A stretch of 64,000 nt of DNA from a virus. Position 1 is the stretch's first letter. Each line of letters starts with the position of its first letter. The stretch lies in the IMG/VR virus record IMGVR_UViG_3300025697_000003, one strand, 5' to 3'. The position numbers and the translations under genes are program-made. Under the pieces are notes generated by a model. The model ran no database searches. It was not told the origin of the DNA and worked only from the letters and a program-made list of their open reading frames with translations. This document shows positions 5,601 through 20,932 of the stretch, piece after piece.

Positions 5601-7728
5601 GCAATTTGCCGCTGTGGGAACTGTGGCAGACACGGTTCTGTTGGACTTGATCGCGGCGTTAGAAGCAATCGGGTTGACTGGAGAGGCCGCGACGAAGGGG
5701 TTCGTCGACGAAACAAACGCACTAATTACAGCATTTGGGTTAGCAGACAAAGGATCAGCTAAACAGGCAGATATTCTTGACGACCTTGCCTCTCGATACT
5801 CGACAGTAACTGGATGGATTGAGGCATTGAGTGCGGTTGGCATTGAAGCGAGTGAAGCTCTCACGCTACTCGTTGCTGCTCTGGAAGAAGTTGGCCTCAA
5901 AGCAGTAGCAGCTGCTGAGAAGACGTTCGTTCAAACGACGTATGAGCTTATTGCTACGTATGATGCGGCGACAGAAGGATCAGTTGCTCAGGCAGAAGCC
6001 CTTCAGTCATTGGCTGGACGATACCAGACTGCGATTGGGTTGGAGGAGTTGCTTACTAGCAAAGGGATCGAGGCAGATGACGAACTCGTTTTGCTAATTA
6101 AAGACCTCGAGAAGTTCGCGGAAGCAGCAGAAGAAGCCGGGGTCGATCTCGTTAATGTTACATCAAAGATGGTAACTGGCGTTGGGCAGCTACTAAAAAA
6201 GTTTGGTGGAGAGGGAGCACAAGGCGCAGGTAGCATCCTGACATCATTAGGAGCATCTATTGGCTCTGTCGGACTAGCAGTGGCTGCTCCAAATCCTATG
6301 ACGATAGGCAACGCGATCCTTGCCGTTGCCGACACAGTTGGAACAGCCTGGATGGAACTTGTTGTAAATCCAGCCGCCGACGCTGAAGAGGAACGTATCA
6401 AAACTGAAGAGGAAAGGCTCGCAGCAGAGCAGGAATTCACAGATAACTTGCTACACGCTGCCGATGCAGCTGCATCAGCATTATGGGGCCTTGTCGAGTC
6501 GGCAGAGTCAGTGGCCGAAATACAGAGCGGCCTTGCCCAACTCCAAGTAAACGTCATGAGCTCATTGCTGGCCTTCCTGTGGCCTCTGGCGGGCATCCTT
6601 GGGTACATCAACGAACTGTTCGTGATACAGGCAGATGTGATAGAGGATGAGGTTGAGGCAAGAGAGAAGATGCTGTCTAACCTTAACGTACCGATTGGCT
6701 TCCCGATCAACAGGATCCGGTTCGCTGCGGGGACACCTGGCGAGCCTGTAACGTTCAACGAAGACGAGATAGGTGGCGGTGCGGATGAGATAGTTGCTGA
6801 GATACTTACGTGGTGGGAAGAGGCACTTGAGCCATTTAGGGATCAGATCATGGAGATGATCCAGCCTATTGCCGACTTCAGGGACGCAATGCAGCAACTA
6901 GCAATCGACTTAATTCCTGCCATGCTGACGATCCTGGAACCTATCCTGGACACATTCGGATGGGCGCTTGGCGAGATTTCCACGTGGATGCAGGATGTAT
7001 TCAAGCCAGATTTCGAGGAGTTCGCAGAGGGCTTTGCGACATTCTGGGAAGACAGGGTAGACCCATTCTGGAAAGAAGACATGTTCCCTCAACTAACAGA
7101 ATGGTTTGACACACTGTACGGCTGGCTTGGCGACATCATCGGATTCTTCGGAGATGAAGGATGGGACTTCCTCACAGACGAGGGTGGTGTGTGGGATAAA
7201 GTTGTAGGATTTGTCGATTCCGTGTTCGATATGTTCTCAGAGTTCGGGCAATGGGTAGACGATAACTGGGAGACGATCGAGAATGTACTCCTGAAACGTA
7301 TTCAAGACGCTCTAGATGCTCTTGGGATAGATCTAGACGACTTTCTCCGCAGAGTAGAGAACTGGCTACTGGGCGGAACATGGGAGCAAGCCGACGAACC
7401 ATCGTGGATTACTAAGTTCCTTACAGGACTAGGCGAGATGAGGGACGCGATCGTTGCTGTACCAGAACCGTTACGAGATATTGCAGGCGTACTGGAAGGG
7501 TTCGCAAACTGGTTAGGCATAGATTATGAATCGTCTGGAGCGATGTCTGTGCAACCTGTCGCTGCAGGTATGGGTGTGGCAGGCGGGATGGGATCTGCTG
7601 GCAAATCAGCAGTAACGATCAACGTCAACCTGTCTCAGGAACGACTCAGCCAAATCATGATCCGTAAAATGACTAGCCAGAATGTGAATGATCACGGCGT
7701 AGGATTTGCGCCAATCAGGGTGGGATAA
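2689..7728 (+). CDS. Tape measure protein
   Basis: 1679 aa. N-terminal helical and TM-like segments, five tandem ~74-aa repeats and an aromatic-rich C-terminal region. Located after the chaperone pair. Confidence 0.9.
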   Translation: MAGEAGSLGRAFVEIHVPVEAFASQMSSVGTTFTSQTSRMIAEAQLVSAAIGSANAGIISSYNAVATSVMGLLTAQELAILSTNNLALALHHGDVAARSMAAGGVVLGTGMAAGAAGIKATTFSLASLMSMAKSVLPFMAAFMAVSKTIGIASGAVTAQREYNKELYQLWTLTDLTVEGIGELSDEIRDLTHDYNVFAKAGAKAMYQIYSATFFADDATEILEQGMKAAAAGATDLVSAVDMTTTVLNAYGMAASEASRINDLLFTTVRYGKTTYEELAGQFGRLAGVAAPAGARIEEMTAAIATLTRQGIMTDWAVTSLRQTIMSMFRPTGALAGVIRALGYETGRALITENGFVEALKMIKQEADAAGMPLENLFTNVRAITAVLPLLTTASVGFALDVDRMADSLGAMDTAFEKMEQDWDYRLETLKSQLNDVSLTIGEMLMPAVEAFMTVWVGFSEVMEKGIEVLGPFGQGMGALAGWVSGAAVSVGALTAAIWLLNKAFIALAANPVVAALGTVALAISVIVSQIMDANSAVHTLADEIRGLPTPGTVEAGRIGMPTASADIVAKFTPEINSFLEKWTEIMDRYSGPGAAVQVESWLPNLIRELEFEAMPTYTGGFSRQSPFALTIDNAPVREAIIATLISGVEDPSVARAIADSFGMSAKLGLSGSDFSMDSSGLSSSVFYDAKVAIAAARTEFDALWSSIQNGTVVVEEGETQIDAVMDAWGDMGDIAQSSAEFLKLMVDTLGVAPEQAALLQGLVEEMLAIAGVTDEVMMGFVEETYALIAAFGAAEEGSADQAQILGELAGRYKTAAGWMETFKKAGIEADAELVDLIAAFEVFNFAVDEGTDSFIDETTKLIAAYKLLDEGSEEQAAALTELTSRYQTTAQWTELLASVGKEADEELVGLIASLEELGIKLKDTTKAVDPFDVATYKLLTTYDEATDGSILQAEALSALSGRYSTATGWLEQFAAVGTVADTVLLDLIAALEAIGLTGEAATKGFVDETNALITAFGLADKGSAKQADILDDLASRYSTVTGWIEALSAVGIEASEALTLLVAALEEVGLKAVAAAEKTFVQTTYELIATYDAATEGSVAQAEALQSLAGRYQTAIGLEELLTSKGIEADDELVLLIKDLEKFAEAAEEAGVDLVNVTSKMVTGVGQLLKKFGGEGAQGAGSILTSLGASIGSVGLAVAAPNPMTIGNAILAVADTVGTAWMELVVNPAADAEEERIKTEEERLAAEQEFTDNLLHAADAAASALWGLVESAESVAEIQSGLAQLQVNVMSSLLAFLWPLAGILGYINELFVIQADVIEDEVEAREKMLSNLNVPIGFPINRIRFAAGTPGEPVTFNEDEIGGGADEIVAEILTWWEEALEPFRDQIMEMIQPIADFRDAMQQLAIDLIPAMLTILEPILDTFGWALGEISTWMQDVFKPDFEEFAEGFATFWEDRVDPFWKEDMFPQLTEWFDTLYGWLGDIIGFFGDEGWDFLTDEGGVWDKVVGFVDSVFDMFSEFGQWVDDNWETIENVLLKRIQDALDALGIDLDDFLRRVENWLLGGTWEQADEPSWITKFLTGLGEMRDAIVAVPEPLRDIAGVLEGFANWLGIDYESSGAMSVQPVAAGMGVAGGMGSAGKSAVTINVNLSQERLSQIMIRKMTSQNVNDHGVGFAPIRVG
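5026..6138. repeat. Five tandem ~222-231-nt coding repeats inside the tape measure gene
   Basis: Repeat starts at 5026, 5248, 5479, 5701 and 5926. Each encodes F(V/I)(D/E)ET..LI.A(Y/F)....EGS..QA..L..L..RY.T..GW.E....(V/A)G.EA.E.L..LI..LE. Confidence 0.85.
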
Positions 7729-9677
7729 TGGCCAGAACAATAGACAATGGGAATATCCTCTCAAAGATTTCTGGAGAGACAGTTAGGGTCTACGACGGCT
7801 CTGACTGGATTGATCTTGTTGATCCAGCAGGATCCTCGTTCCCTGGCTATTCCCGAGTGAAGGCCTACCAGTGGAGCTACAATCAGAGCAACGGTAAGTG
7901 GGTGGCCACGGTCACGTTTGCGAACTATGAGTATCTGAGGGATGCCGGCGAGAGCCTTGACCCAACTGACACGTCAGACTTCAATCCGTTGGACGTTCCT
8001 TTGCTGGGTGCTTACCACAAGTTTGAGATCTGGGTTGGCAAGTACAGCGCAGGAAATGTAGCTGGCACAGAAGCCATGGTATTCAGCGGGCGTATCGGAC
8101 CTGACTCAATCCAACCAGATGAGGGCATTGAGGGCGAGGATTTCGTCGTTGCTCGAATCGTCGGAGTGACGCAGCCGTGGTTTGCGGACTACATCGACAA
8201 GATCGATCGAGGAAGACTCTACACTGACTGCTACCTATCTGGAATCTGGAATGCGACAACGACATTCGCTGTTGGCGATGTCGTTACTCTGTCAGGAGTA
8301 GCGTATCAGTGCATCCTAGCGAGTACAAACAACGAACCTCCGAACATTACCTACTGGACTGTCTTCACTGGGACGAACAACATCTGCAATCAGATCTTGA
8401 CCGACTTCGGGCATGAAGCGAATATCGTTGTTGCACCGTCACCAACTGGACTAGATCCGTTGACGTTCTACTGCGAGAACTACGAGATTGGCGATATATC
8501 GGTAGGGGAGGCCATCCTTCGACAGGTCAGCGCGATCGGGTTCCTCCTCCAGGAGAAGTACAACGCGACACAGGCCAACTTCGTTCCTACCATCGTGGAT
8601 CCAGATCGAGACAACGTGACTCCTGACATCGACCTTGAGGGAAACATCAACACGTCTAGGATTGTCTATTCTGAAGCTAACGTAAGGACGTTCTGCCGTG
8701 TTGTGTTCTACAACAGGGATGACGGCAGCTTCTCGTATGTAGACGCAGAGAACGATGCTGCAAGGCTCATCTACGGCATACCTGGCGCTGGTGGTACGAA
8801 GCTGCACAAGAGAATGCGTGTTGTCGAGAACGACAAGTCGTGGATTGACACAGAAGTCGAGGCCCAGAAGGAAGCGAATTATTGTGTGCAGGATGCAGGG
8901 ACACCGCTCATCAAGAACTCTTTTGTCATTCCGTGGCTAGTCCTTGGAGTCGAGGGTGGAGATCTCGTAAGAATTGTAACGCCATCGAAGACAATGGACG
9001 TTGGCGTGTTGACCATTCAACACAACGTCGGTGAGGGCGACATGTTCGGGCACACCGTCATCACAGGGACACTAGCACGTCGCGTCGGCAACTACGAATA
9101 CTGGTTCAATCGGTCGAGGGTAGACAACGCTTGGAAGCAGGACAGATACAACGAACTGATGCAAGGACCGATTCCGATGAAGCCAAGTAACGTAGTGGCC
9201 AAGTCGGTGTGGGGAAAAGATGTAGCAGGCTCTCCTGCGCCAGTAATCGATGTGTCATGGTTTGGTGCAAGAGATGGTAGAACGCGATCTCACGTTCTTA
9301 GGTATCGATTACTTAGTCCACGAGATTCTGGTACTGCAACTGCTGGCAGCACAACAACTCTGACGGATGGCTCTAAATCATGGACGACAAATGCCTACCG
9401 TAATGGCGGATATGTGTCCATGGCTGGGAATGTTACCTCAAGGAAGGGGACTGACAATCTACGGAGGATCCTTTCCAACACAGGTACTGTGCTGACGTTT
9501 GAGAATGCGGTAGATGTTGCGCCGGCGAATACGGAGACATACGAGATCTATTGGGTAACAGGAGAGTGGCACGAAGTCACAGTAGGCAAGGAACAATTTG
9601 TTCAATTACCTGGACTCCCAGAAGGGAACGAATACATGATCGAAGTGGCGGCTGTACCAACAGTCAGCGGGACATAA
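7728..9677 (+). CDS. Tail/baseplate protein (Dit position) with CBM5/12-like insertion
   Basis: Start overlaps the TMP stop (TAATG). 649 aa. Contains WNATTTFAVGDVVTLSGVAYQCILASTNNEPPNITYWTV (nt 8246-8356) and a beta-rich C-terminus. Confidence 0.6.
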   Translation: MARTIDNGNILSKISGETVRVYDGSDWIDLVDPAGSSFPGYSRVKAYQWSYNQSNGKWVATVTFANYEYLRDAGESLDPTDTSDFNPLDVPLLGAYHKFEIWVGKYSAGNVAGTEAMVFSGRIGPDSIQPDEGIEGEDFVVARIVGVTQPWFADYIDKIDRGRLYTDCYLSGIWNATTTFAVGDVVTLSGVAYQCILASTNNEPPNITYWTVFTGTNNICNQILTDFGHEANIVVAPSPTGLDPLTFYCENYEIGDISVGEAILRQVSAIGFLLQEKYNATQANFVPTIVDPDRDNVTPDIDLEGNINTSRIVYSEANVRTFCRVVFYNRDDGSFSYVDAENDAARLIYGIPGAGGTKLHKRMRVVENDKSWIDTEVEAQKEANYCVQDAGTPLIKNSFVIPWLVLGVEGGDLVRIVTPSKTMDVGVLTIQHNVGEGDMFGHTVITGTLARRVGNYEYWFNRSRVDNAWKQDRYNELMQGPIPMKPSNVVAKSVWGKDVAGSPAPVIDVSWFGARDGRTRSHVLRYRLLSPRDSGTATAGSTTTLTDGSKSWTTNAYRNGGYVSMAGNVTSRKGTDNLRRILSNTGTVLTFENAVDVAPANTETYEIYWVTGEWHEVTVGKEQFVQLPGLPEGNEYMIEVAAVPTVSGT

Positions 9678-9687
9678 GGAGGGCACG

Positions 9688-9999
9688 ATGAGCACCGCGA
9701 CATTCCATCTCAAACAGAACGATACAAAGCCATCCTTGTCTGCGAGTCTGACGCAAGATGGTTCAGTAGTCGATCTGACTGGGGCGACTGTAAAGTTCCA
9801 CATGGGCGATACAGTGGATTCAGCAGCAGTAGTGGCCGGCGCATTAACTGGGTCTGTTAGGTATGACTGGGATGCGGAGGACACAGTAACCGCAGGATCA
9901 TTCCCTGGCGAGTTTGAGGTCACGTTCTCTGATGGGACGATAGAGACATTCCCGAATGACGGGTATCTGACAATCGAGATCCAATCGGAGTTGGCATGA
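9688..9999 (+). CDS. Small Ig-like tail/baseplate protein (BppU-N-like pattern)
   Basis: 103 aa, with AAGGAGG upstream. Pattern LKQNDTKPSL.A.L..DGSVVDLTGATVKFHM resembles baseplate upper protein N-domains. Confidence 0.5.
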   Translation: MSTATFHLKQNDTKPSLSASLTQDGSVVDLTGATVKFHMGDTVDSAAVVAGALTGSVRYDWDAEDTVTAGSFPGEFEVTFSDGTIETFPNDGYLTIEIQSELA

Positions 10000-10370
10000 G
10001 CAATAATCACATAACGATCAACAACTCGATTACAGAGGCGGGACGGACGGTAACTTCTCGCATTCCTCCGAATGCGCCATTAGATTTCGGCACGTTGGCT
10101 ATCCTGTTCAACAACATGGTCCCACAGTCATCGGCGCCGAGCGATCCATCAGAGAAAGATGTGTATCTTGACGACGGTACGAATACCGTGTCAGGGACAT
10201 TGGGATTCAGACAATACGACGGCAGCGCGTGGGAAGATTTCGGATTGCAGACAGGAGGTGGCAGCAGCATTACTTCAACACCTGAAAGCGGACAATATCA
10301 GGTGACTGACATGAGGCTTGCGTCAGACTTCACATTGATTGTCGAGTACAACGATGTACCCGCAGCATAA
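9996..10370 (+). CDS. Hypothetical tail-module protein
   Basis: 124-aa ORF with an ATGA overlap to the upstream gene. No recognisable motif. Confidence 0.5.
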   Translation: MSNNHITINNSITEAGRTVTSRIPPNAPLDFGTLAILFNNMVPQSSAPSDPSEKDVYLDDGTNTVSGTLGFRQYDGSAWEDFGLQTGGGSSITSTPESGQYQVTDMRLASDFTLIVEYNDVPAA

Positions 10371-10376
10371 GGAGAA

Positions 10377-10826
10377 ATGATGATTCATGAGACTGCAGAC
10401 GTAGATCCTACTGCCACGATTGGCGAAGGGACGAATGTGTGGAACAACGCGCAAGTGCGTGAAGGCGCGAAGATTGGGAAGGATTGTGTCATTGGAACGG
10501 GAGCTTACATCGGGAAGGATGTTGTTGTTGGTGATCGATGCAAGATTGAGAACTACGCATGTCTGTTCCGTGGAGTCAGAGTTGGAGACGAGGTGTTCAT
10601 TGGTCCGCATGTTTGCTTCACGAATGACAGGATTCCTCATGCAGATGGGTCAGCATGGGATTTAGCCGTTACGTTGGTAGCCAGCGGTGCAAGCATTGGT
10701 GCGAATGCAACGATCTTGCCTGGAGCTCGCATCGGAGTAAACGCCATGGTTGGCGCAGGAGCAGTCGTAACTAGAGATGTATTGGCGCACGAAACAGTTG
10801 TTGGAAATCCAGCGAGGGAAATATGA
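10377..10826 (+). CDS. Left-handed beta-helix (hexapeptide) N-acetyltransferase, WbpD/WlbB-like
   Basis: Hexapeptide repeats throughout (IGEGTNVWNNAQV, IGKDCVIGTGAYI, VGDRCKIENYA, IGANATILPGARIGVNAMVGAGAVV). AAGGAG upstream. ATG at 10380 is an alternative start. Confidence 0.8.
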   Translation: MMIHETADVDPTATIGEGTNVWNNAQVREGAKIGKDCVIGTGAYIGKDVVVGDRCKIENYACLFRGVRVGDEVFIGPHVCFTNDRIPHADGSAWDLAVTLVASGASIGANATILPGARIGVNAMVGAGAVVTRDVLAHETVVGNPAREI

Positions 10827-11872
10827 TCACAATAGCAAACCCTATCATTGGCGATCTTGAGAAAGCCGCGGTCATGGACGTGCTGAACTCAGGGAATCTA
10901 GCTCAGGGTTCCAAGGTACGCGAATTCGAAGAGGCGTTTGCGAAGTACGTCAACGCTGAGTACGCAGTTGCCGTTTCTTCTGGGACTGCTGCGCTCCATC
11001 TTGCATTGAGGGCGCATGGTGTTGGAGGTGGCGATAGCGTTGTGACGACGCCATTCAGCTTTATGTCGACAGCGAACGCGATCATTCACTGTAATGCGTA
11101 CCCCGTATTCGGAGACATTTCAGAGGAATCGTTCAATCTGACGCCAGAAAGCGCAGAAGCCGCGATTAACCCCTCTACTCATGCTGTGATGCCGGTACAC
11201 CTGTATGGCCTCTCTGCGGACATAGATGGATTTGAGGGCCTCTCTGCTCGATCAGGCGTGCCAATCATCGAGGATGCCTGCCAAGCTCACGGCGCGACGT
11301 ACAAAGGCCAGATGATCGGGTCGATCAACACGACATGCTTCTCGTTCTATCCATCCAAGAACATGACAACTGGCGAAGGTGGAATGGTAACGACAAACGA
11401 TCCTACGATTGCCGACAAGGTGAGGACATTGCGTAGCCATGGTGTCGTAGAAGATGTCATCGGGTTCAACTATCGGATGACGGACATTCAGGCAGCGATT
11501 GGGTGTGTGCAGCTAGATTCTCTTGATGACTGGAATGCTATCCGAGGCCAGAATGCGCGACTGCTGACACACTTGCTCTCTGACTCAGTAATTTGTCCAA
11601 AGGATACAGAAGGGCATGTCTACCACCAGTACACGGTGAGGATCAAAGAGAACAGGGACGAGGTATTACTCAAACTCAACGAAGCTGGGATTGGCGCAAG
11701 GGTCTACTACGACACGCCGATCCATAAGATGTATCCATATTCTGTGGCAGAGTCGACGAGACCTACGGCAGAGATGGTGGCGAAGCAAGTCCTGTCTCTT
11801 CCGGTGCATCCAGGAGTTTCAGCAGAGGATATTGAACGAATTGCGGAGGTGTTGAAATGCGCGTTGGCGTGA
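10823..11872 (+). CDS. DegT/DnrJ/EryC1-type PLP sugar aminotransferase (WbpE/WlbC-like)
   Basis: Motifs: AVSSGTAALHLAL, DACQAHGA, and SFYPSKNMTTGEGGMV carrying the PLP lysine. ATGA overlap with the acetyltransferase gene. Confidence 0.9.
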   Translation: MITIANPIIGDLEKAAVMDVLNSGNLAQGSKVREFEEAFAKYVNAEYAVAVSSGTAALHLALRAHGVGGGDSVVTTPFSFMSTANAIIHCNAYPVFGDISEESFNLTPESAEAAINPSTHAVMPVHLYGLSADIDGFEGLSARSGVPIIEDACQAHGATYKGQMIGSINTTCFSFYPSKNMTTGEGGMVTTNDPTIADKVRTLRSHGVVEDVIGFNYRMTDIQAAIGCVQLDSLDDWNAIRGQNARLLTHLLSDSVICPKDTEGHVYHQYTVRIKENRDEVLLKLNEAGIGARVYYDTPIHKMYPYSVAESTRPTAEMVAKQVLSLPVHPGVSAEDIERIAEVLKCALA

Positions 11873-13062
11873 TTGGTCTAGGGAGTATGGGAGCGAACCA
11901 CGCACGGGTGCTTGATGAACTCGGTGTGCTTGCGGCGGTATGCGATTCTGACAAGTTGGCGCCATGTCGAACGTCTGTGAAGAGATACACGACCATTGAG
12001 GGGATGCTGAAGAATCAGAATCTAGACGCAGTTACGATTGCTGTTCCGACATCGTTGCATTGCATGGTTGGGAGTACGGTACTGAAAGCCGGCATACCTG
12101 CGCTGATAGAGAAGCCACTTGCATCTACAGTTGCCGAAGCACGCTTGCTTGTTGAGGTAGCGAAGGCTGCTGGAGTATTCCTGTCTGTTGGGCTGATCGA
12201 GAGGCACAACCCTGCTGTTATTGAACTGAAGAAACGGTGGGGACAGCTGGGCGACGTATCTCAGATGATCATCCGTAGGATGGGGCCCTTCCCTTCTCGG
12301 GTAGAGGATTCAGGAGTGATACTTGATCTATCTGTGCATGATTTCGATCTCATCCGATTTCTTACGGGATCTACGATAGAGTTTATGGCTGGATTGTCGT
12401 CACGGTCAATTCACGCAACAAGGGAGGATGCAGTCTCGTGTGTAGGGATGACAAAGAACGGAATCCTTACAACCATAATGGAGAACTGGACGACGCCTAC
12501 GAAGATCAGAGACATAACTGTACATGGGGCTGAAGGCATGTTCCATGTGGACTTGTTGATGCAGGACATCACGTTCTATGCAAACAACTACGGGCCTGCA
12601 TCATGGGAAGCTGTAAGTATCTTCAGAGGCGTGTCTGAAGGGGATCGGACACAGTACAAGATAGATCGAAGAGAGCCGCTAAAACAAGAGATATCGGCCT
12701 TCCTGCAGTGCGTGGAAGACGGGACACAGGACGGAGGAACTCCAGGGATTGAAGGCGTGTTCGCGCTTCAGCTATCAGAGAAGCTCCAGGGGATGTGTGA
12801 TGGTAACATGGCGTTGAAGAAAAAGATTGAGCCGAAACTGGGAGTGAAGGGTGGCGCGAAGAAAGAAGCTGCTCCGGTAGAGAAGCAATTGACGGCGAGC
12901 GAAAAGGTGAGAGCCTATCTCGTTGAGCACCAAACCTGTTTTGTGACAAGGAAGCGGTTGGCGGATGGTCCTAATAAAGGGAAGATGCAAGCAAAGTATA
13001 CCGAGCTCAAAGGTGAACAACTGGAAGAAGTAGTAAATTCGTTGGTGTCCCTGTGTCAGTAA
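11857..13062 (+). CDS. Gfo/Idh/MocA-family sugar oxidoreductase (WbpB/WlbA-like) with 84-aa Lys-rich C-terminal extension
   Basis: N-terminal Rossmann MRVGVIGLGSMGANHARV and an EKPLA motif. Overlaps the upstream gene by 16 nt. The extension begins at MALKKK (nt 12808). Confidence 0.8.
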   Translation: MRVGVIGLGSMGANHARVLDELGVLAAVCDSDKLAPCRTSVKRYTTIEGMLKNQNLDAVTIAVPTSLHCMVGSTVLKAGIPALIEKPLASTVAEARLLVEVAKAAGVFLSVGLIERHNPAVIELKKRWGQLGDVSQMIIRRMGPFPSRVEDSGVILDLSVHDFDLIRFLTGSTIEFMAGLSSRSIHATREDAVSCVGMTKNGILTTIMENWTTPTKIRDITVHGAEGMFHVDLLMQDITFYANNYGPASWEAVSIFRGVSEGDRTQYKIDRREPLKQEISAFLQCVEDGTQDGGTPGIEGVFALQLSEKLQGMCDGNMALKKKIEPKLGVKGGAKKEAAPVEKQLTASEKVRAYLVEHQTCFVTRKRLADGPNKGKMQAKYTELKGEQLEEVVNSLVSLCQ

Positions 13063-13119
13063 AGGAAATCAAATCAACTCCTCAGTGCTCAACGACACAG
13101 AGAGGAAAAGGAGGAAATT

Positions 13120-13494
13120 ATGGCTCTAGCAAGTTTGACGATGCCGACCTCTGTTACAGTATCTGAGGCAGAGTCAACCGGGACTAGCTCAGGAGTGGCC
13201 GCATCTACGGCGTCTTCTTCGGCGTCTGCAGCGATCATTGACGCATCTGAGGCTTCATCTCAGGCGTCCGTGGCGATCATTGACGCATCTGAGGCATCCT
13301 CGTTGGCATCATCGGCAGCGGCTGACGCATCTGATGCGAAGTCGACGGGTCTTGTTGACAGCTCGGCTGCTTCGGTTACGAAGTCGTTGGCGGTCTACAG
13401 CGATCCGGGCTCTGATGAGTATCCGGTCAAAGAGATTGTCATGAATGCTACACTAGATACCGTCGTTACTTACGATGATTCATCTATCGCGTAG
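13120..13494 (+). CDS. Ser/Ala-rich fibre-like protein
   Basis: AAAGGAGG upstream. 124 aa, with about 70 residues of S/A/D low complexity. A perfect 23-nt direct repeat GCGATCATTGACGCATCTGAGGC occurs at 13231 and 13273. Confidence 0.6.
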   Translation: MALASLTMPTSVTVSEAESTGTSSGVAASTASSSASAAIIDASEASSQASVAIIDASEASSLASSAAADASDAKSTGLVDSSAASVTKSLAVYSDPGSDEYPVKEIVMNATLDTVVTYDDSSIA

Positions 13495-13503
13495 CGTAAT
13501 CCA

Positions 13504-13525
13504 GGGGCGGTCTTCGGGCCGTCCC
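13504..13525 (+). terminator. Stem-loop with cUUCGg tetraloop (weak terminator or RNA stabiliser)
   Basis: GGGGCGGTC-TTCG-GGCCGTCCC gives a 9 bp stem including 2 G-U pairs. Only a weak T tract follows. Confidence 0.4.
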
Positions 13526-13543
13526 TACTTCTAAGGAGAGAAC

Positions 13544-14596
13544 ATGAAAATTGCACACTGGAGCAGTTTTGCACCGAGTCGCTCTGGGCTCTACGAGGCC
13601 GCGAAAGACCTCGTTCTAGCTGAGAGGGCGGCGGGTATTGACGCACTGTTCATGAATATGAGCATAGAGGATATCGAGCAGCACAAGGCGAAGTGTCCAG
13701 GAGGCAGGATTGACGAGGCGAATCTTAATCCGAGTGATTGGGAAGCGGCAAAGGATGCGAAGATCTGGGTCATTCATCGTGGCATCCCTGCATCGATGCT
13801 CGAGGAGTCTAAGAAGCACTATTTGATCATGGCGATCCACGGTGCTCCAGAACACATGATGATGCACGACATCGAGAACAGCGGTAACGTACAGAGCTTC
13901 AATTCGCACATCAACATGGTGAACAATTACGATCGGTCGGTAGCGTTGAATGAGCACGACTACAGGATATGGCAGATGTATGCACCTCCAGAGAAGCTAG
14001 TCCACATTGACGACTCGATTGACGTCACTCGCTTCTCTCCAGATGGATATGCGTGGGAGTTCACAGGCGAGCCATCGATCCTTCATGCTGACGTATCACG
14101 AAATATCAAGCTGCCGTTCACGCTGTTCTGGGCGATGGGGAAGATCTACGAGAGCATCCCAGAGGCAAGGCTTCAGATGTATGGACTGCCGTTTGCTGAG
14201 ATCAACACATTCAGAAACATGATGGTCAGGGCACAGAACATTCATCTGTTGGGTACGTTGGAATCTGTGCAGATGATCACATCTGATCTTCGACCGATGA
14301 TGAGAGGGTCTGACATTGGAGTCAACCCGAATCTCAGTGGAGTACGCTCGCGTGTAACGATGGAGATGATGGCGTGTGGGCTCCCTGTAGTTGGTGCTGG
14401 CGAAGGCTACCCGATTCGAAGGTATCGCACCTACGACACGCATGGGCTTGCAGAGACGATCCTAGAGGCGTGGGAAGAGATTCAGAAGGATCCTACGGCA
14501 GCGCGTGAGCAAGCTCGAGCGTATGCAGTAGAACACTTTGACGTTAAGAACGCTGTAGAGACTGGATGGATCCCACTCTACGAGGAGGTAGGGTAA
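13544..14596 (+). CDS. GT-B fold glycosyltransferase (GT4-like)
   Basis: 350 aa. The C-terminal motif RVTMEMMACGLPVVGAGEG is typical of group-1 glycosyltransferases. AAGGAG upstream. Confidence 0.75.
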   Translation: MKIAHWSSFAPSRSGLYEAAKDLVLAERAAGIDALFMNMSIEDIEQHKAKCPGGRIDEANLNPSDWEAAKDAKIWVIHRGIPASMLEESKKHYLIMAIHGAPEHMMMHDIENSGNVQSFNSHINMVNNYDRSVALNEHDYRIWQMYAPPEKLVHIDDSIDVTRFSPDGYAWEFTGEPSILHADVSRNIKLPFTLFWAMGKIYESIPEARLQMYGLPFAEINTFRNMMVRAQNIHLLGTLESVQMITSDLRPMMRGSDIGVNPNLSGVRSRVTMEMMACGLPVVGAGEGYPIRRYRTYDTHGLAETILEAWEEIQKDPTAAREQARAYAVEHFDVKNAVETGWIPLYEEVG

Positions 14597-16074
14597 TGGC
14601 ACTACAAACGACGAAGCTAGTAGGTGACATAGAGTTTGGACCGTATTCGATGCTTGCCTCTGTTTCTGATGATACGCCTCTTGCGCTGGCGATCGCGGAA
14701 CAAACGATAGTAGGAAGGATCACGGGCGGCAACATCGCAGCGTTGACCGTGGCTGAATTGCAAACGCTGGCCTTCTCTGCGAACTTGCCTGAGAACGTTA
14801 CTATCCGGCTTGATCCAATCCTCAGTGCAGATACCAAGTGGACAGGGACAACTCGTGATGTGGTAGCTGGCACAACTGCGCTTGTTTATGGCTACTGCTA
14901 CTACTGCGCGTCGACCGGCAAGTGGGAACTGACAAACGCTACCGCGATCGCCACTTCTCATGGAGAGGTCGGCATGTGTGTCATTGCCGCGGCAACTGAC
15001 GCGACTGGTACGTTGTTGATGAATGGAATGATTCGGGCTGATGACGAATTTGATACATTCACTAAGGGCAGTGACATCTACCTGAGTGCTTCTACGGCTG
15101 GGAAACTGACAGCTACTGCGCCTACAGGGACCACGGACTTCGTAGTGAGGATCGTAGCTTCGGCACCAACGGCTGACAGCGTTTCTTTCAAGGGCGGCCA
15201 CGCATACGCTGAACTCGGAGATACTGTGTTCGTTACAAAAGCAACTTATGGCGCACAATCAATTCTTGCTGCTGTGTTGAATGATACACCAGTGGTTGTT
15301 ACTGTTGCTGAACAAACGCTGGTGGGGCGGAAGACAGGCGGCGATGTAACAGCCTTAACCGCTGCCGAGACTAGCGCGATTGTTCATTCGGTTGGGCTCG
15401 CTGCTGACTGGGACGTACTTGACAACAAGATCACAGCCCAAAACCTCACCGCCGATGCGCTGACTGCCGGGCGGGGTGTGTTCACAGGCACAGACGGGCT
15501 TTTGTCGGTTGACGGTGCTTTCATTTGGGACAATACGAATAAGCGGTTGGGGATTGGGGTAACACCGTTACATATTATTCACGTATCATCGTCCATTGAT
15601 ACAGGCATTGGGATTGGCACCACCGACGCGGGGAGAGAAGCATATTTAGCGTTGTACTCAAACTCTGTGAGCATAGGAACGTTCGAGGCGTTTGGATCGA
15701 CCTTTGCCGTTGCGGATTACCAATCAGCGGTATCTTTTACTGCCCAGGTTAATAACGATGGAAAGATATTTTTCACGACAAAGACCAGTGGGACTCCAAC
15801 AGCAAGAATGGTGATTTTGAATAATGGCAACGTCGGCATCGGAACAACCGCCCCCGGCGCAAAGTGCCACGTAGACCAGTCAAGCACCTCAGGCGCGATA
15901 CCCGTGCTGACTTTGGATCAGGCGGATCTTAGCGAGGAGTTCATATCGTTCAAAACTACAGTCGGAGATGGCAATCCGATGGACGCTACTAATGCTGTCG
16001 GCTCAGCTTACGCTAGGTTAAGGATTGACGTAGACGGTGTTGGATACAAGTACATTCAAGTTTACGACGCATAG
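14596..16074 (+). CDS. Tail fibre protein
   Basis: ATG at 14596 overlaps the upstream stop (TAATG), with GAGGAGG 8 nt upstream. Internal duplication (..DTP...(I/V)AEQT(I/L)VGR.TGG...ALT.AE.. twice). C-terminal NNGNVGIGTTAPGAK fibre motif. Confidence 0.7.
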   Translation: MALQTTKLVGDIEFGPYSMLASVSDDTPLALAIAEQTIVGRITGGNIAALTVAELQTLAFSANLPENVTIRLDPILSADTKWTGTTRDVVAGTTALVYGYCYYCASTGKWELTNATAIATSHGEVGMCVIAAATDATGTLLMNGMIRADDEFDTFTKGSDIYLSASTAGKLTATAPTGTTDFVVRIVASAPTADSVSFKGGHAYAELGDTVFVTKATYGAQSILAAVLNDTPVVVTVAEQTLVGRKTGGDVTALTAAETSAIVHSVGLAADWDVLDNKITAQNLTADALTAGRGVFTGTDGLLSVDGAFIWDNTNKRLGIGVTPLHIIHVSSSIDTGIGIGTTDAGREAYLALYSNSVSIGTFEAFGSTFAVADYQSAVSFTAQVNNDGKIFFTTKTSGTPTARMVILNNGNVGIGTTAPGAKCHVDQSSTSGAIPVLTLDQADLSEEFISFKTTVGDGNPMDATNAVGSAYARLRIDVDGVGYKYIQVYDA

Positions 16075-16082
16075 GAGGGAAC

Positions 16083-16331
16083 ATGGCATTTGATCCAGTA
16101 GTTGCAAAAGCACCAGCAAGCATCGGCGACATCAGCGTAGTTCTAACGGACTACATCGACGAAGAGACGTCGACAGCAAAATACGAGGTGCAGGTGAAGG
16201 ACGCAGACGGCGGTATGTTCGAGTTGAAGCAAGGCGATCTAGTACCAGAGTTGCCGCAAGTACACATCGATGCGATGTTGGCGCTGATGGCATACGTTGA
16301 AGGGCGATCGCAGGAGTTCTTGCCAGCGTAG
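16083..16331 (+). CDS. Hypothetical tail-fibre-module protein
   Basis: 82-aa acidic ORF with GGAGGGA upstream. Confidence 0.5.
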   Translation: MAFDPVVAKAPASIGDISVVLTDYIDEETSTAKYEVQVKDADGGMFELKQGDLVPELPQVHIDAMLALMAYVEGRSQEFLPA

Positions 16332-16359
16332 GATCGATTGTGGAGGAGGTGGAATCTAA

Positions 16360-16974
16360 ATGGCGACCGAGACGCTTAGGCCGAATGCGGCGGGTGATGA
16401 GACAGCCATTGCCGATCAATATCCTGACTCAACAGCGCACTGGGATAAGGTGGATGAAGCAGTCGCGGATGACGATACTACTTATCTGCAAGATGTAGGT
16501 GGAACCTATGCCCGCGACTTTTACAATATACCAGATTCGGTAGGAAGCGGAACGATAAGTTCCATCAAAGTTTATGCTGACGTGAGATGTACTGGCGCAC
16601 CAGCGCAAGCCAGCGTAAAAATCGTCATCAAGTCTGGTACTGGAACAGGTGCGCCAGACACAGCCGATGAAGGCAGCGAATTGACTATTACCACTAGCTA
16701 TGTTCTCCGCTCAGAATCATGGGCCACGAATCCTGCCACCTCCGCTGCTTGGACTTGGGATGAAATAGACAAGCTGCAAATTGGTATCTCTATGAGGAAA
16801 GCCTCAATAGTCCCTGAGGCAAGTCGGTGCACCCAAGTCTACGTCGAGGTGGATTATACGGCAGGTAGCGCAACCAGCATCAAGACAGTCATGGGCGTAC
16901 CAATCGCTGACATCAAGACAGTCAACGGGGTAGCAATCGCAGATGTGAAATCATTCATCGGAGTATCGACGTAG
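16360..16974 (+). CDS. Hypothetical tail-fibre-module protein
   Basis: 204 aa, with GGAGGAGGTGG upstream. Starts LRPNAAGDET...HWDKVDE. C-terminal short repeats (PIADIKTVNGVAIADVKS). Confidence 0.55.
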   Translation: MATETLRPNAAGDETAIADQYPDSTAHWDKVDEAVADDDTTYLQDVGGTYARDFYNIPDSVGSGTISSIKVYADVRCTGAPAQASVKIVIKSGTGTGAPDTADEGSELTITTSYVLRSESWATNPATSAAWTWDEIDKLQIGISMRKASIVPEASRCTQVYVEVDYTAGSATSIKTVMGVPIADIKTVNGVAIADVKSFIGVST

Positions 16975-16988
16975 GATAGGAGAAGACA

Positions 16989-17297
16989 ATGGCTGACTAC
17001 AGGAAAGTATTTGGTAGGATTGTTACTGATGCTGAAGGAGCGGTAGGCGGAGTTTCCGTAAATGTCTATCAGCCTGGCACAACGACAGCGATCACTCTAA
17101 AGGCAAACAAGGCTGGGACAGAGGCCAAGGCTAATCCGTTTGATACTGACGCTAACGGTATCTGGGCATTCTTCACAGACACAGATGCTCTTTCTGGAGT
17201 GGACTACGAAGTTGACATCGTGTTCTCTAAGAGTGGGCTAGACTTCTCGAATATGAACGTGATGTACGAGAACGTGACGGTTCCAGGCGGATTCTAG
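16989..17297 (+). CDS. Small beta-sandwich-like structural protein
   Basis: 102 aa, with TAGGAGAAG upstream. GGVSVNVYQPGTTTAITL resembles prealbumin/CarboxypepD_reg-like folds. Confidence 0.5.
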   Translation: MADYRKVFGRIVTDAEGAVGGVSVNVYQPGTTTAITLKANKAGTEAKANPFDTDANGIWAFFTDTDALSGVDYEVDIVFSKSGLDFSNMNVMYENVTVPGGF

Positions 17298-17321
17298 GCC
17301 GCTTCATAAGGAGGAGTGCGA

Positions 17322-18899
17322 ATGTCATCTGCAGTAGCGACTCAAGGATTACCGCTCGGTGAAGGAGTTGGGATTGTCACACACCACTCGGGATGGACTC
17401 AGGCTACGTTTGGAGAAGTACCAGAGAAGACTCTCGTTCCTAGTGCCCCTGTGATCGATTCTATGGCCGCTCCAGACCAGACGGCTGGCATTCTGGTACT
17501 AAGTATCACCCTGCCGACTACAGACACTGGTGGCAACGCCCTAGCGCAGTCTGAGATCGTTAAGATTCGTATGCACCACAGCACGAGTTCCGGTGTCGAT
17601 ACTGGCGACTCGTATGTTGACTTCCCTCCCGGCGTAACTATCCAATGGGGTCCAGGAGATGTTGTTGCCCACTACGCTGCTATCCGCGTCCAAGATACTC
17701 ACGATCATTGGTCTGTACTCTCGAATGAGAAATCAGCTACAGCGAATGCGGGAACAGAGCCTGAGTACGATGGTCTCTGGGCTCACCGGCTTGGGAAGGA
17801 TTCTGTGTGGACAGAGGACTCTCCGACTACTGATGATGTTGCATGGTCGAACGTAACTCTCTACTGGAAGGATAACAAGTATGCGATAACGGACGGCAAC
17901 ACTAACAAGACGTACATTTGGTGGGACCACAGCAGCACTACAACATTCCAGACATCGGATACGAAGCCGACTTTAACGTTTGAAGACATCCTAGTGGCTA
18001 CGACTGATGCAGGGATGCTGTACCTGACAATGTACTCCCCGATGGTGCTTGCTGACTTCATTCGTGCTGGAGTGCTTGAGTCTACGAACTGGACTACCAC
18101 GGCTGGATCGTACTTTGATCTCGATGCAGGGACGATCAAGCTCGGGGGATCAGATGATCCTTCATTCGCAGTCGACGCAGCCGGCTTGATTACAGCAAAA
18201 GCAGGAACAGTTGGCGGATGGACACTCGCAGCGACGACCTTAACTGGCGGCGATCTAACGCTCGACTCTGGGAACACGAAGATCATAGCTGGCACGGGTG
18301 ATGATATTGTCATCATAGACGCAGCTGACGCTGATTATCGTCTAGTAATTGGAGATGCTGTATATGCAGACGCTCCATTCTCTGTACAGAAGGATGGGAA
18401 GTTCTATCTCGGTGGAGTTGCTGGCAATTTGCAGTGGACTCCATCTCCAGCGGCTCTAATAGTTACGGCGATTTATGCCTCTGCCGCTACATCTGTGGAA
18501 CGGATTACAATCGCTACTGCTGACCTAAAGGCAGTAGACGCCTCTAACAATACTCGTGCCAATTTCAGCAGCACTGATATCACGCTGTACGACGCTACTC
18601 CTACGCTGATTGCTTTTATCCCGACAACTTCAGGGGTTACTCACGCTACGAATCCATTCTTTGTACATGCCCAAGTAACTGTCGACAACAAGTTGGTCGT
18701 TGGATCATCGGCCATTGACAATCCATCGCAAGCTCTGCACGTCACAGGGACAGGTCTCTTCACAAGCACAGTAGTCGTCGGAGACCATGGCGAAAGCACG
18801 ACCCCGAGCGTCGTCAACGTCCTCTTCTACACGGCTGGTAATATTCCAACTGCAAGTACGACTCCACGTGGTACGTTTGCTGTGCAGGTGCCCGCATGA
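17322..18899 (+). CDS. Tail fibre/baseplate structural protein
   Basis: ATG at 17322 lies 7 nt after GGAGG (the track start 17316 is a GTG inside the SD). 525 aa, T/S/G/A-rich and beta-rich. Confidence 0.6.
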   Translation: MSSAVATQGLPLGEGVGIVTHHSGWTQATFGEVPEKTLVPSAPVIDSMAAPDQTAGILVLSITLPTTDTGGNALAQSEIVKIRMHHSTSSGVDTGDSYVDFPPGVTIQWGPGDVVAHYAAIRVQDTHDHWSVLSNEKSATANAGTEPEYDGLWAHRLGKDSVWTEDSPTTDDVAWSNVTLYWKDNKYAITDGNTNKTYIWWDHSSTTTFQTSDTKPTLTFEDILVATTDAGMLYLTMYSPMVLADFIRAGVLESTNWTTTAGSYFDLDAGTIKLGGSDDPSFAVDAAGLITAKAGTVGGWTLAATTLTGGDLTLDSGNTKIIAGTGDDIVIIDAADADYRLVIGDAVYADAPFSVQKDGKFYLGGVAGNLQWTPSPAALIVTAIYASAATSVERITIATADLKAVDASNNTRANFSSTDITLYDATPTLIAFIPTTSGVTHATNPFFVHAQVTVDNKLVVGSSAIDNPSQALHVTGTGLFTSTVVVGDHGESTTPSVVNVLFYTAGNIPTASTTPRGTFAVQVPA

Positions 18900-20932
18900 G
18901 TACCGCAGTAGAGATAATCGGGACTTCTAGTGATGGATACATGTACGCTAGAACAGATGCCCATTTCAGCATCGCAAGAGATGCTGAAGATGCGTATTAC
19001 AAGGCTGACGCAGTAGACACATTGCGTGTCGGCTTGTCGTATCCAAATCTCGCAAATGACAAGTACCGATTCTACAGATCGTATCTATACTTTGACACAT
19101 CTAGCATCCCTGATGGCGCAACGATTCTTATCGCAACGCTCTCTCTCTATCTCACTGGGACAGTGACAATCATTCCATCTGGCTTTTCCGTCATTCTTAT
19201 GAAGATGAAAGACAACGATGGAACGTACCCGCATGATCCTCTTGTTGACGGAGACTTTGATCGAGAATTCTATATTGGAGGCGGGGCTTCGTCGCCATCT
19301 GTATCCTCCGGGCAATCAGGATATAAGACGTTCACGTTCACTTCTGCTGGAAGGAGTGGATGGATCAATGATGAAGGGACGTCGAAGTTCGTTGTGATGT
19401 CGTCGCTGGATGTTGGATACACAATTCCGAACATCAACATGCTCGCTTACTTCTACTCGCAAGAGAAGGGCGGGAGTTATCGTCCGAAGATGAACATCAC
19501 GTATTCTACTCCATGCACAGTGACAACTGGGGCAGCAACAAGCCTCTTGCCAGGAGGGGCCACAGGGAATGGTAACGTCACAGATGCCGGAAGCGATACC
19601 GTTACAGTCCGTGGTGTCATCTGGAACGACGATGGTACTGATCCTGTTGACCTGGCGAGCGCAGACAATTCGGCGGCAGCAGTTGCTGGAGGAACAGGTG
19701 CATTCACAGCAGCAATAACTGGATGCGATGCGGAGACCTCGTACTACTACAGGGCGTATGCTACGACTGTGGCCGGGACATCAGTTGGCAGTGCAGTCCA
19801 ATTCACGACGACCGCAGACTCTACCATCTTCTCTGTAACTACTCAGGCAACTGAAGACGCGGCGACTACTACAGCGACAGCAAATGGAACGGTCGTTGAG
19901 GACGCTGCACACGACTTAACAGCGTATGGCTTCGTCTACAAGCTCGGAGGGGATCCTGGTATTCCAGCTGATCCGACAACTGCCGATAACTACACTGATA
20001 AAGGTGCGAAATCATCTCCAGCAGAAGGCGCGTACACCTCAGACCTTACAGGTCTTACCGCTGAGTCTACCTATTTCATTCGTGCCTACGCCACGACTTC
20101 TGAAGACGGCACAGTGTATGGCGACTTAGACATCTTCCGAACTGGCACGACTGCGCAGACTGACATTGATGACGAAACCGGAGACGGAACGCTGTACAAA
20201 TCTACTTTGAAACTTGGTTCGCCATGTACGGCAGGCACAGTTGACGCAACTTCAGCAGATTCAGTAGCTACAGGAGCAGAACTTATTGAATTATCTTCTT
20301 GGGATCACGCGCTTGGTGCTTATTGTGAAAGCTATACGACTCGCGCCTATCTGTATTTCGATACATCTGCGTTGTCTGGAGCTACGGTAACGAGCGTCGA
20401 TCTGAAGCTCTATATGGTCTATGCGTATTATAGCCCAAATTCTGGAGTTTTCGCATGGAATGGGCTTCAAGTCTTACAGGACTCTGATGGCGATTATCCA
20501 TCTGAATCTGGAGGCTCTCCTGCGCTTGCTGTAGGCGACTTCGACAAAACCGAGTACACCCAGATTGCAACGATTGCTGCATCTGCAATGGGAACCGGGA
20601 CGGTAGCAATAATAAATGCGTGGAAAACAGTCTCATTGCCAATCAGCGCGGTAAACACGGAAGGACTAACGAAACTCTGCATCATGGTATACGACGTAGC
20701 TGAGATGGTCGCTTACTCTTCTCAAATCGTGAGCTTCCATTCTGCTGACGGCACGAACGTACCATACCTAGACATTGACTACTCTGCTCCTCAAACCCCG
20801 TCATTCCCAAAAGTGAACAAGGGAGATGCGTGGGTTGATCCAGTAGAGATTCTTGTGAACATCGGTGACGAATGGATACCGTATGACGATCTAGATGTGA
20901 ACATTGGAGACGCTTGGGTCGAGCCGGTTTAA
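18896..20932 (+). CDS. Large tail fibre-associated protein with duplicated end domains and FN3-like repeats
   Basis: ATGA overlap with the upstream gene. YRSYLYFDTSSIPDGATI (N-terminal) is echoed by RAYLYFDTSALSGATV (C-terminal). Two ..(S/T)Y(Y/F).RAYATT... FN3-like units. Confidence 0.6.
   Translation: MSTAVEIIGTSSDGYMYARTDAHFSIARDAEDAYYKADAVDTLRVGLSYPNLANDKYRFYRSYLYFDTSSIPDGATILIATLSLYLTGTVTIIPSGFSVILMKMKDNDGTYPHDPLVDGDFDREFYIGGGASSPSVSSGQSGYKTFTFTSAGRSGWINDEGTSKFVVMSSLDVGYTIPNINMLAYFYSQEKGGSYRPKMNITYSTPCTVTTGAATSLLPGGATGNGNVTDAGSDTVTVRGVIWNDDGTDPVDLASADNSAAAVAGGTGAFTAAITGCDAETSYYYRAYATTVAGTSVGSAVQFTTTADSTIFSVTTQATEDAATTTATANGTVVEDAAHDLTAYGFVYKLGGDPGIPADPTTADNYTDKGAKSSPAEGAYTSDLTGLTAESTYFIRAYATTSEDGTVYGDLDIFRTGTTAQTDIDDETGDGTLYKSTLKLGSPCTAGTVDATSADSVATGAELIELSSWDHALGAYCESYTTRAYLYFDTSALSGATVTSVDLKLYMVYAYYSPNSGVFAWNGLQVLQDSDGDYPSESGGSPALAVGDFDKTEYTQIATIAASAMGTGTVAIINAWKTVSLPISAVNTEGLTKLCIMVYDVAEMVAYSSQIVSFHSADGTNVPYLDIDYSAPQTPSFPKVNKGDAWVDPVEILVNIGDEWIPYDDLDVNIGDAWVEPV

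Follow-up and report, generated by a model that had tools for sequence, protein, structure and literature searches.

Positions 10377–14596 of IMG/VR virus record IMGVR_UViG_3300025697_000003 carry a five-gene cassette that we propose to be a virion-fibre glycosylation module. The stretch analysed, hereafter the window, is 64,000 nucleotides (nt) long and belongs to a tailed phage, whose terminase, portal, RecT and integrase-like genes it contains. The cassette is flanked by structural genes, with large fibre-like open reading frames (ORFs) downstream. All five ORFs lie on the plus strand, exactly where a first-pass annotation of the DNA had placed them, and the families assigned there hold against Pfam (Hexapep, DegT_DnrJ_EryC1 and GFO_IDH_MocA), with a weak match for the glycosyltransferase (GT). 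The motifs quoted in that annotation, SFYPSKNMTTGEGG, GLGSMG and EKPLA, are present in the translations. The overlaps between stops and starts are also real, being of ATGA type at 10823–10826, 16 nt long at 11857–11872 and TAATG at 14594–14598. The cassette and the segment around it comprise the following features, with E values after the family names.

9688–9999, + strand: BppU_N/Rib-like small protein, 103 amino acids (aa), which opens a 7.3-kb segment; Pfam BppU_N, 6.7e-7
9996–10370, + strand: 124-aa protein with the same C-terminal knob module as the mini-fibre
10377–10826, + strand: N-acetyltransferase, left-handed beta-helix, 149 aa; Pfam Hexapep, 2.3e-26
10823–11872, + strand: DegT-family pyridoxal phosphate (PLP) sugar aminotransferase, 349 aa, with the SFYPSKNMTTGEGG lysine motif; PF01041, 1.3e-120
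11857–12801, + strand: Gfo/Idh/MocA NAD-dependent dehydrogenase domain; GFO_IDH_MocA, 4.5e-20, plus C-terminal domain
12802–13062, + strand: C-terminal extension of the dehydrogenase ORF; BLASTP 1e-9 to the 62-aa ORF L003:3260-3448
13120–13494, + strand: mini-fibre, 124 aa, with N-terminal motif, alanine-zipper stalk and C-terminal knob
13503–13526, + strand: GC-rich hairpin with UUCG loop between the mini-fibre and GT genes; minimum free energy −19.7 kcal/mol, z = −1.6
13544–14596, + strand: GT4-like glycosyltransferase of GT-B fold, 350 aa; Pfam Glyco_trans_1_4, weak, 1.8e-6
14596–16074, + strand: 492-aa fibre protein, translationally coupled to the GT (TAATG overlap behind GAGGAGG)
16083–16974, + strand: two proteins, of 82 aa and 204 aa, that close the variable segment; PHROG 2448, 1.4e-7

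The glycosyltransferase and its mini-fibre partner

Gene neighbourhoods were compared across four long contigs and 31 IMG/VR loci (labelled L). Of the 19 deduplicated loci of the close GT family, which belong to different phage backbones, 17 have a mini-fibre homolog at most two genes upstream of the GT (three of the positives were assigned by manual inspection). Among the other ORFs of the same loci, the Ala/Ser (A/S) criterion picks out 1 of 417, which gives a Fisher p of 2e-27, a value that makes the case look too strong, given the ancestry that the loci share. In every locus the GT stands among virion genes, including those for capsid, Gp77, Gp80, connector and Laminin_G_3 fibre-like proteins. 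The first-pass annotation had named the Ser/Ala-rich protein as a candidate acceptor and a comparison of related phages as a check, and the recurrence of the GT/mini-fibre pair in structural modules lends that suggestion strong comparative support. The tailoring partners of the pair vary. Most loci have a class I S-adenosylmethionine (SAM) methyltransferase and/or a Methyltransf_24-like gene, and the amino-sugar triad occurs only in the window clade, L003 and L016. Between lineages the mini-fibre (72% identity) and the GT (75%) are more conserved than the sugar enzymes (48–63%). GT and mini-fibre form the conserved core, and the sugar-tailoring enzymes the interchangeable part. More distant GTs (27–31% identity) have no mini-fibre. 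One GT-bearing contig also has, immediately before its structural module (L015:1-2510), the gene of a 2660-aa protein that combines RadC, LPD23 and ART-PolyVal domains.

The AlphaFold (AF2) model of the GT, built from a 120-sequence alignment, is confident, with a predicted local distance difference test score (pLDDT) of 92.6 and a predicted template modelling score (pTM) of 0.90. It has the two-Rossmann-domain GT-B fold that the enzyme had been assigned; an earlier model from a 10-sequence alignment (pLDDT 49) was discarded. Foldseek gave 404 PDB matches at E <= 0.001, with GT4 enzymes at the top and template modelling (TM) scores of 0.65–0.75. MshA, HepE, BshA, PimA/B′, PglA and GtfA are among them, all retaining GT-B enzymes of GT4 type, and of these nearest folds, MshA and BshA use UDP-GlcNAc, and GtfA is the O-GlcNAc transferase of Ser-rich repeats. 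Sequence identity to the MshA, BshA and PimA/B′ fold matches is 12–19%, and a GT profile run against PDB sequences returned PimB′ alone, at an uninformative E = 0.38. DNA alpha-glucosyltransferases rank 23rd and 45th among the viral fold matches. R186, K189 and E274, the last in the context ...TMEMMACGLPVV, are putative nucleotide-binding residues and invariant in the 120 sequences. The first Glu of the EX7E motif is apparently replaced (G266), as read from the alignment with no structural superposition.

The GT family is phage-specific, with at least 171 metagenomic homologs at about 35% identity in a profile search. An exhaustive search among 1.84 billion entries gave 75 GT representatives at E <= 1e-30, a number that rises to 498 at E <= 0.001. 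In some of the more distant family members the GT is joined to methyltransferase and additional GT domains, and inteins interrupt two close homologs, P0134 and P0135 (Intein_splicing, 2.6e-5 and 1.8e-10). The cassette contains no second GT-like gene.

The mini-fibre begins with a conserved MAxxSxxFxP motif and ends in a conserved knob of ~34 residues. Ala and Ser alike recur along it with a 3.5-residue periodicity, and the indels of the family are 7, 7, 7 and 21 residues long. Pooled over 17 members, the heptad register has Ala at positions a (0.67) and d (0.80) and Ser at b (0.45) and f (0.49). By its sequence, the protein is an alanine-zipper heptad coiled coil with Ser on the exposed face, not a plain low-complexity stretch. 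The Ser/Ala-rich 124-aa ORF of the first-pass annotation thus exists, with its description corrected to a structured coiled coil that carries a knob. Searches of Pfam, PHROGs and the PDB found no family for it, the nearest match being the Lpp alanine zipper (E = 0.83). We rejected a non-coding or antisense artefact as the origin of the ORF, which has a strong ribosome-binding site (AGGAGG), homologs 57–76% identical and the conserved knob.

Both ends of the mini-fibre recur in other proteins. The N-terminal motif is common to longer A/S-stalk fibres downstream of the GT in many loci. The knob corresponds to a ~30-residue motif, S.P..GEY.I..IRLD....IVV.YDD, that stands at the C terminus or in tandem in otherwise unrelated small and giant proteins. 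A knob hidden Markov model (HMM) matches residues 92–121 of the window protein 9996–10370 (E = 3.6e-4, SSITSTPESGQYQVTDMRLASDFTLIVEYNDVPA), and the module is also found in 62-aa ORFs of L003 (3435-3623) and L016, in a 1264-aa protein (L020:2100-5894) and, as three tandem copies, in the L031:5048-5485 protein. It could be a docking or trimerisation unit.

Predicted sugar-nucleotide pathway

The acetyltransferase matches 4mzu (5e-35), 7s43 (6e-35), WlbB (3mqg, 1.7e-28) and QdtC (1e-21) in the PDB. The WlbB match spans the full length, every better match is a 3-amino-sugar N-acetyltransferase, and the window enzyme is predicted to 3-N-acetylate a UDP-3-amino sugar. Its copies in L003 and L016 are 60% identical to it. 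The aminotransferase matches 7b0d (1e-75), QdtB (3.5e-62) and WbpE (7e-60), with perosamine synthase and ArnB also above WbpE.

The third enzyme is encoded by a 401-aa ORF (11857–13062). The NCBIfam model that it matches best is NF040723, for the UDP-GlcNAc 3-dehydrogenase of archaea (4.9e-67; next family 3e-27), and its best solved relative is 7bvj (E = 4.9e-23), which is GnnA, a UDP-GlcNAc 3-dehydrogenase. The two align at GVIGLGSMG/GVIGVGHLG (Rossmann GxGxxG), LIEKPLA/LIEKPFT (EKP lysine) and DLSVHDFDL/DLMIHDLDL (HDxDL). WbpB (3o9z) ranks about 58th, with E = 1.2e-4 and 24.6 bits. We predict a GnnA/MMP0352-like UDP-GlcNAc 3-dehydrogenase, not a WbpB-like one. The chemistries that the first-pass annotation ascribed to the triad, oxidation, amination and acetylation at C3, are borne out by these relatives, which are of 3-amino-sugar type for the acetyltransferase and UDP-GlcNAc 3-dehydrogenases for the dehydrogenase. 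The likeness it drew to WbpB, WbpE and WbpD survives in part: WbpD is upheld through WlbB, WbpB gives way to GnnA, and the match to WbpE leaves C3 and C4 undiscriminated. Likewise, among the profile and structure comparisons it had suggested (WbpB/E/D, GnnA/B and QdtB/C), the dehydrogenase matched GnnA best and WbpB only weakly, and WlbB and QdtC are among the best solved relatives of the acetyltransferase.

The dehydrogenase is 320 aa long in L003 and 316 aa in L016, as opposed to the 401-aa ORF of the window. In L003 the 320-aa enzyme is followed by a 62-aa ORF, a free-standing homolog of the window's C-terminal extension, which indicates that two genes became fused in the lineage of the window. 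Among cellular dehydrogenases the nearest share only 36–38% identity with it and are scattered over archaea, spirochaetes and Desulfobacterota; an attempt to infer the host from them failed for these reasons. In deposited phages every match stays under 30% identity, most of them coming from records without annotation or from contaminated assemblies, and the dehydrogenase alone as query found no match in IMG/VR. A Spirochaetaceae metagenome-assembled genome has the acetyltransferase, aminotransferase and dehydrogenase genes contiguous and in the order of the window, which supports the triad as a functional unit.

dTDP-based Qdt/Fdt routes require a 4,6-dehydratase and a 3,4-ketoisomerase, and the cassette has neither. 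The Wbp pathway to UDP-ManNAc3NAcA takes five enzymes, among them WbpA and WbpI (PMC10622841). A scan of the cassette, of the larger ORFs of the window and of some small ones revealed neither of these two, although the host may have a copy. A GnnA-type dehydrogenase with no WbpA or WbpI found points to UDP-2,3-diacetamido-2,3-dideoxyglucose as the product and not to a uronate, and leaves the uronate branch that the first-pass annotation had allowed for the substrate unsupported. The most economical prediction is UDP-GlcNAc3NAc made from host UDP-GlcNAc.

Mobility, expression signals and genome context

The closest relatives of the window, L001 and L002, share its tape-measure, baseplate and fibre proteins at 60–80% identity. 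The 7.3-kb segment 9688–16974 is absent from both (tblastn), and in them the 649-aa protein is followed directly by a homolog of 16989–17297. Cassette identity to L003 and L016 is 47–76% (GT 75–76%; mini-fibre 72% in L003), as opposed to only 33–35% for the portal. The module is horizontally mobile and more conserved than the backbones that carry it. Its place in the tail module, described in the first-pass annotation, is therefore true of the window but not a fixed property: in the other two lineages, L003 and L016, it sits just upstream of the portal gene.

The fibre gene after the GT is itself variable. The domain at residues ~87–207 of the 492-aa protein recurs downstream of the GT in other phages, there fused to an A/S stalk, and BLASTP gives 1e-7 to a 291-aa protein of L003 and 6e-4 to an A/S-stalk fibre of L015. 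Next to a 100% identical GT (L006–L011), the fibre is 492, 508, 727 or at least 401 aa long and differs in its C-terminal part. This gene looks like a host-range hotspot. In L006, an IS200-type Y1 transposase lies just downstream of the variable fibre gene. A homolog of the 204-aa protein that ends the segment follows closely after the GT in L016, and tblastn gives 34% identity and 1.5e-21 (L016, L017). The metagenome of L016 (IMG/VR 3300025698) is one dataset of an Antarctic lake study (PMC8542988).

From 7.8 to 17.8 kb the plus strand shows no consensus for a sigma-70-like promoter or an intrinsic terminator, although this is weak evidence. With no such consensus around the cassette, we rejected the model of a moron with its own promoter and terminator. 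The integrase-like gene lies ~22 kb away on the other strand, which agrees with the view of the first-pass annotation that integrase-proximal seroconversion is less likely. A test for Gtr-type seroconversion returned Pfam matches to the GT-B enzyme and cytoplasmic sugar-nucleotide enzymes only, and to no membrane-bound Gtr-type protein. The hairpin at 13503–13526 is kept, with its UUCG loop, in L003 (~4005–4030) and L016 (~3615–3640), where the stem sequences are different. It may act in partial termination or attenuation, or stabilise the mRNA. A hairpin after the mini-fibre gene, together with the strong ribosome-binding site in front of it, would fit a structural protein made in excess over an enzyme.

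The other genes that locate the cassette in the window are the following.

2689–7728: tape measure; PhageMin_Tail match
7728–9677: 649-aa baseplate or distal-tail protein, adjoining the cassette; CBM_5_12 and tail-fibre PHROG matches
36916–37506, − strand: integrase-like gene, 196 aa, integrase-family
39360–40604: DnaN sliding-clamp homolog, within the minus-strand block 35400–41300
52503–54122: terminase
60295–61698: portal

An exonuclease and a DnaC-like loader are also encoded. The minus-strand block further contains helix-turn-helix (HTH) proteins, with GC raised to 0.55–0.57 at 38–41 kb. Across the cassette GC is 0.50–0.53, as in the rest of the genome, and compositional foreignness of the cassette was rejected. 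A DNA search of positions 7000–21000 against deposited phages found no match, and no tRNA genes were found in the window. Two window proteins have CBM_5_12 carbohydrate-binding modules, 7728–9677 (3.2e-5) and 22380–23354 (8.6e-8). The 295-aa protein 41357–42244 has a short match to Proteasome-subunit (PF00227, 3.8e-7, residues 49–95). Three HNH endonuclease genes are present (31654–32706, 52000–52533 and 56748–57347), two of which flank the terminase/portal region. At 44997–46090, a weak ThyX-like protein (PF02511, 1.3e-5) stands beside a dCTP deaminase (PHROG 1663, 6.6e-58), forming a nucleotide-metabolism pair.

Proposed mechanism, alternatives and known systems

Sequence, structure prediction and gene neighbourhood together make virion-fibre O-glycosylation the best-supported reading. 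By homology, the dehydrogenase would oxidise C3 of host UDP-GlcNAc, the DegT enzyme would aminate the 3-keto group, and the beta-helix acetyltransferase would N-acetylate the product to UDP-2,3-diacetamido-2,3-dideoxy-D-glucose (UDP-GlcNAc3NAc). The fold and the neighbourhood of the GT suggest that this cytoplasmic, GT4-like GT-B enzyme would then O-glycosylate exposed serines in the stalk of the mini-fibre encoded upstream, at heptad positions b, e and f. The glycosylated mini-fibre would be built into the virion as a glycan-bearing appendage, its incorporation being suggested by its N-terminal motif in longer fibres and its knob in small proteins of the structural module. Such an appendage might, speculatively, serve adsorption, shielding or anti-aggregation. 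We put the probability that the cassette is a self-contained, horizontally mobile virion-fibre glycosylation module at roughly 0.55.

Several points weigh against this proposal. The acceptor is nominated by adjacency alone, in loci that descend from a common module and are not statistically independent, and in two of the 19 (L026 and L027) the GT has no mini-fibre at most two genes upstream or at a distance of up to 750 nt. The coiled-coil assignment has sequence periodicity as its sole basis, and the mini-fibre is placed in the virion through the modules that it appears to share with virion-module proteins. Small molecules or lipids are the acceptors of GT4 neighbours such as MshA, BshA and PimA, and the fold is no pointer to a protein acceptor. 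On the donor side, the top matches of the aminotransferase mix C3 and C4 enzymes, which the sequence does not discriminate, so its C3 assignment leans on the dehydrogenase and the acetyltransferase; the dehydrogenase scores 226.6 bits with NF040723, below the curated equivalog cut-off of 450. A protein search with a typical member of the GT family found no match in 50,697 deposited phage genomes, and no transfer of function is possible from any studied relative.

The acceptor might be a virion protein other than the mini-fibre, such as the coupled fibre at 14596–16074 or another structural protein, with the mini-fibre a co-inherited neighbour or adaptor. The GT stop overlaps that fibre's start, L003, L015, L016 and L025 have a related fibre domain after the GT, and the acceptors that PMC12619734 mentions for mycobacteriophages are capsid and tail-tube subunits. 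We nevertheless think this unlikely, since the downstream protein varies in architecture and length between loci, and in its C-terminal part even between near-identical phages, whereas the constant partner of the GT is the mini-fibre. The downstream fibres of other loci bear the A/S heptad stalk and the N-terminal motif, which makes the stalk the common feature, and the window fibre has no stalk. To a similar degree we doubt that the cassette modifies a host envelope glycan (O-antigen, capsule, S-layer glycan or teichoic acid) in infection or lysogeny, whether to block superinfection, to stop progeny from sticking to debris or in the role of auxiliary metabolic genes. Phage glycosyltransferase and nucleotide-sugar genes are usually read as envelope-modifying (PMC12801897), the genome has an integrase-like gene, GT4 enzymes often act on lipid-linked or envelope precursors, and the GT has a weak Glyphos_transf match (0.0027). 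However, the integrase-like gene is distant and on the opposite strand, the cassette has no promoter or terminator consensus of its own, and no flippase, polymerase or GtrA/B-type partner was found in the cassette or among the ORFs scanned. Envelope modification would also leave unexplained why a GT is paired with a coiled-coil fibre in the structural modules of many unrelated phages.

Very little probability goes to a GT that, like MshA and BshA, produces a soluble glycoside of a small molecule or lipid, with no bearing on the virion. MshA, BshA and PimA/B′ are its top Foldseek matches, but at 12–19% identity they reflect the shared GT4 fold, and a consistent structural-module context with a fibre partner speaks for something else. 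Least probable is glycosylation of hydroxymethylated bases in the phage DNA for restriction evasion. In its favour, the GT-B fold is common to DNA alpha-glucosyltransferases, and the genome has genes for a dCTP deaminase and a weak ThyX-like protein. Against it, no ThyA-type dCMP/dUMP hydroxymethylase turned up in the ORFs scanned, which included some of the small ones, and the GT genes lie in the virion module with a fibre protein as their conserved partner, not in the replication or nucleotide module. All four alternatives are less consistent than virion-fibre O-glycosylation with the GT/mini-fibre pairing inside structural modules.

If virion-fibre O-glycosylation is correct, many uncultured environmental phages would carry glycosylated virion appendages, with donor synthesis, transferase and acceptor encoded within about 4 kb of a tailed phage and the sugar chemistry swapped between lineages like a cassette. 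The module would also offer glycoengineering a compact cytoplasmic O-glycosylation system, with A-S-x-A-x-S-x heptads as acceptor and a rare diacetamido sugar, and would make a role of phage surface glycans in adsorption, anti-aggregation or evasion of host and grazer recognition testable. A wider and more tentative proposal, to which we give somewhat less than even odds, is that the mini-fibres belong to a widespread and unrecognised class of 'glyco-fibres': alanine-zipper fibres with O-glycosylated exposed serines, a dedicated, phage-specific GT4-like transferase, swappable tailoring and transfer between unrelated backbones as a cassette with a variable receptor-binding fibre. Phages would then have a programmable glycan surface, O-methylated in most and bearing a phage-made 2,3-diacetamido sugar in the window clade. 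Four aspects appear to be new: the type of acceptor, the conserved pairing of GT with mini-fibre in a family that lacks cultured members, the exchange of sugar-tailoring genes in the manner of a cassette, and a tailed phage in which donor synthesis, transferase and acceptor make up one complete unit.

To our knowledge, virion glycosylation among tailed phages has been demonstrated only in mycobacteriophages, where it alters immune recognition, and we know of no phage-encoded diacetamido nucleotide-sugar pathway described for them. In that system, reported by Freeman et al. 2023 (Cell Host Microbe) and known to us through papers that cite it (PMC12619734, PMC12801897), virion proteins are glycosylated by phage GTs. 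As these papers summarise it, the likeness to the window lies in phage GTs, sometimes with methyltransferases, encoded among virion genes. The acceptors they give are C termini of capsid and tail-tube proteins, whereas the acceptor predicted here is a dedicated, Ser-lined coiled-coil mini-fibre. Unlike the mycobacteriophage GTs, the window's GT family is absent from all deposited phage genomes searched.

The donor pathway resembles two cellular routes. In the GnnA/GnnB route to lipid A GlcN3N, as predicted for the window, a Gfo/Idh/MocA UDP-GlcNAc 3-dehydrogenase is followed by a DegT aminotransferase; the acetamido-sugar route of Methanococcus (MMP0352/0351/0350) uses a dehydrogenase, an aminotransferase and an N-acetyltransferase to make UDP-GlcNAc3N(Ac). 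The window dehydrogenase is only ~30–38% identical to GnnA and the archaeal enzymes and scores under the equivalog cut-off. These routes feed lipid A or the N-glycans of archaeal flagellin and S-layer, whereas the predicted target of the window cassette is a phage protein, and among the ORFs scanned the window shows no downstream 6-dehydrogenase or 2-epimerase. The Wbp/Wlb pathway (PMC10622841) shares the three C3 chemistries and a WlbB/WbpD-like acetyltransferase, and WbpE matches the aminotransferase at 7e-60, behind several other enzymes; its dehydrogenase is of another kind, and with WbpA and WbpI not found, uronate and manno products are not expected of the window.

Among protein O-glycosylation systems, GtfA/GtfB (PDB 4pqg, 5e9t) is similar in that its GT-B enzyme, also cytoplasmic, attaches HexNAc to serines in a repetitive, Ser/Ala-rich fibre protein whose gene is close by. 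GtfA, however, has ~500 aa with an inserted domain and needs GtfB, whereas the window GT has 350 aa and a TM score, normalised to GtfA, of 0.40–0.49. Ser-rich-repeat regions are not heptad coiled coils, and the accessory Sec system of GtfA/GtfB is not present in the window. Flagellin glycosylation islands, such as FlmG and pseudaminic acid systems, cluster an acceptor, a dedicated cytoplasmic O-glycosyltransferase and strain-variable genes for sugar synthesis or tailoring, and the acceptor is a helical filament-forming protein. They differ in their Maf/FlmG transferases, their nonulosonic acids and the fold of the acceptor. PMC7591256 is one paper on such islands.

On the side of the fibre, Mimivirus and chloroviruses encode rare-amino-sugar pathways and transferases that decorate their own surface fibres. 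These giant viruses are eukaryotic and use many enzymes, as opposed to a compact 5-gene module in a ~70-kb tailed phage. T4 fibritin with its foldon and the phi29 head fibre combine N-terminal attachment, a heptad stalk of trimeric type and a C-terminal beta unit of ~30 residues. The mini-fibre has a similar architecture, with no detectable sequence similarity to either, and is set apart from both by its Ala/Ser-only heptads and its obligatory GT neighbour.

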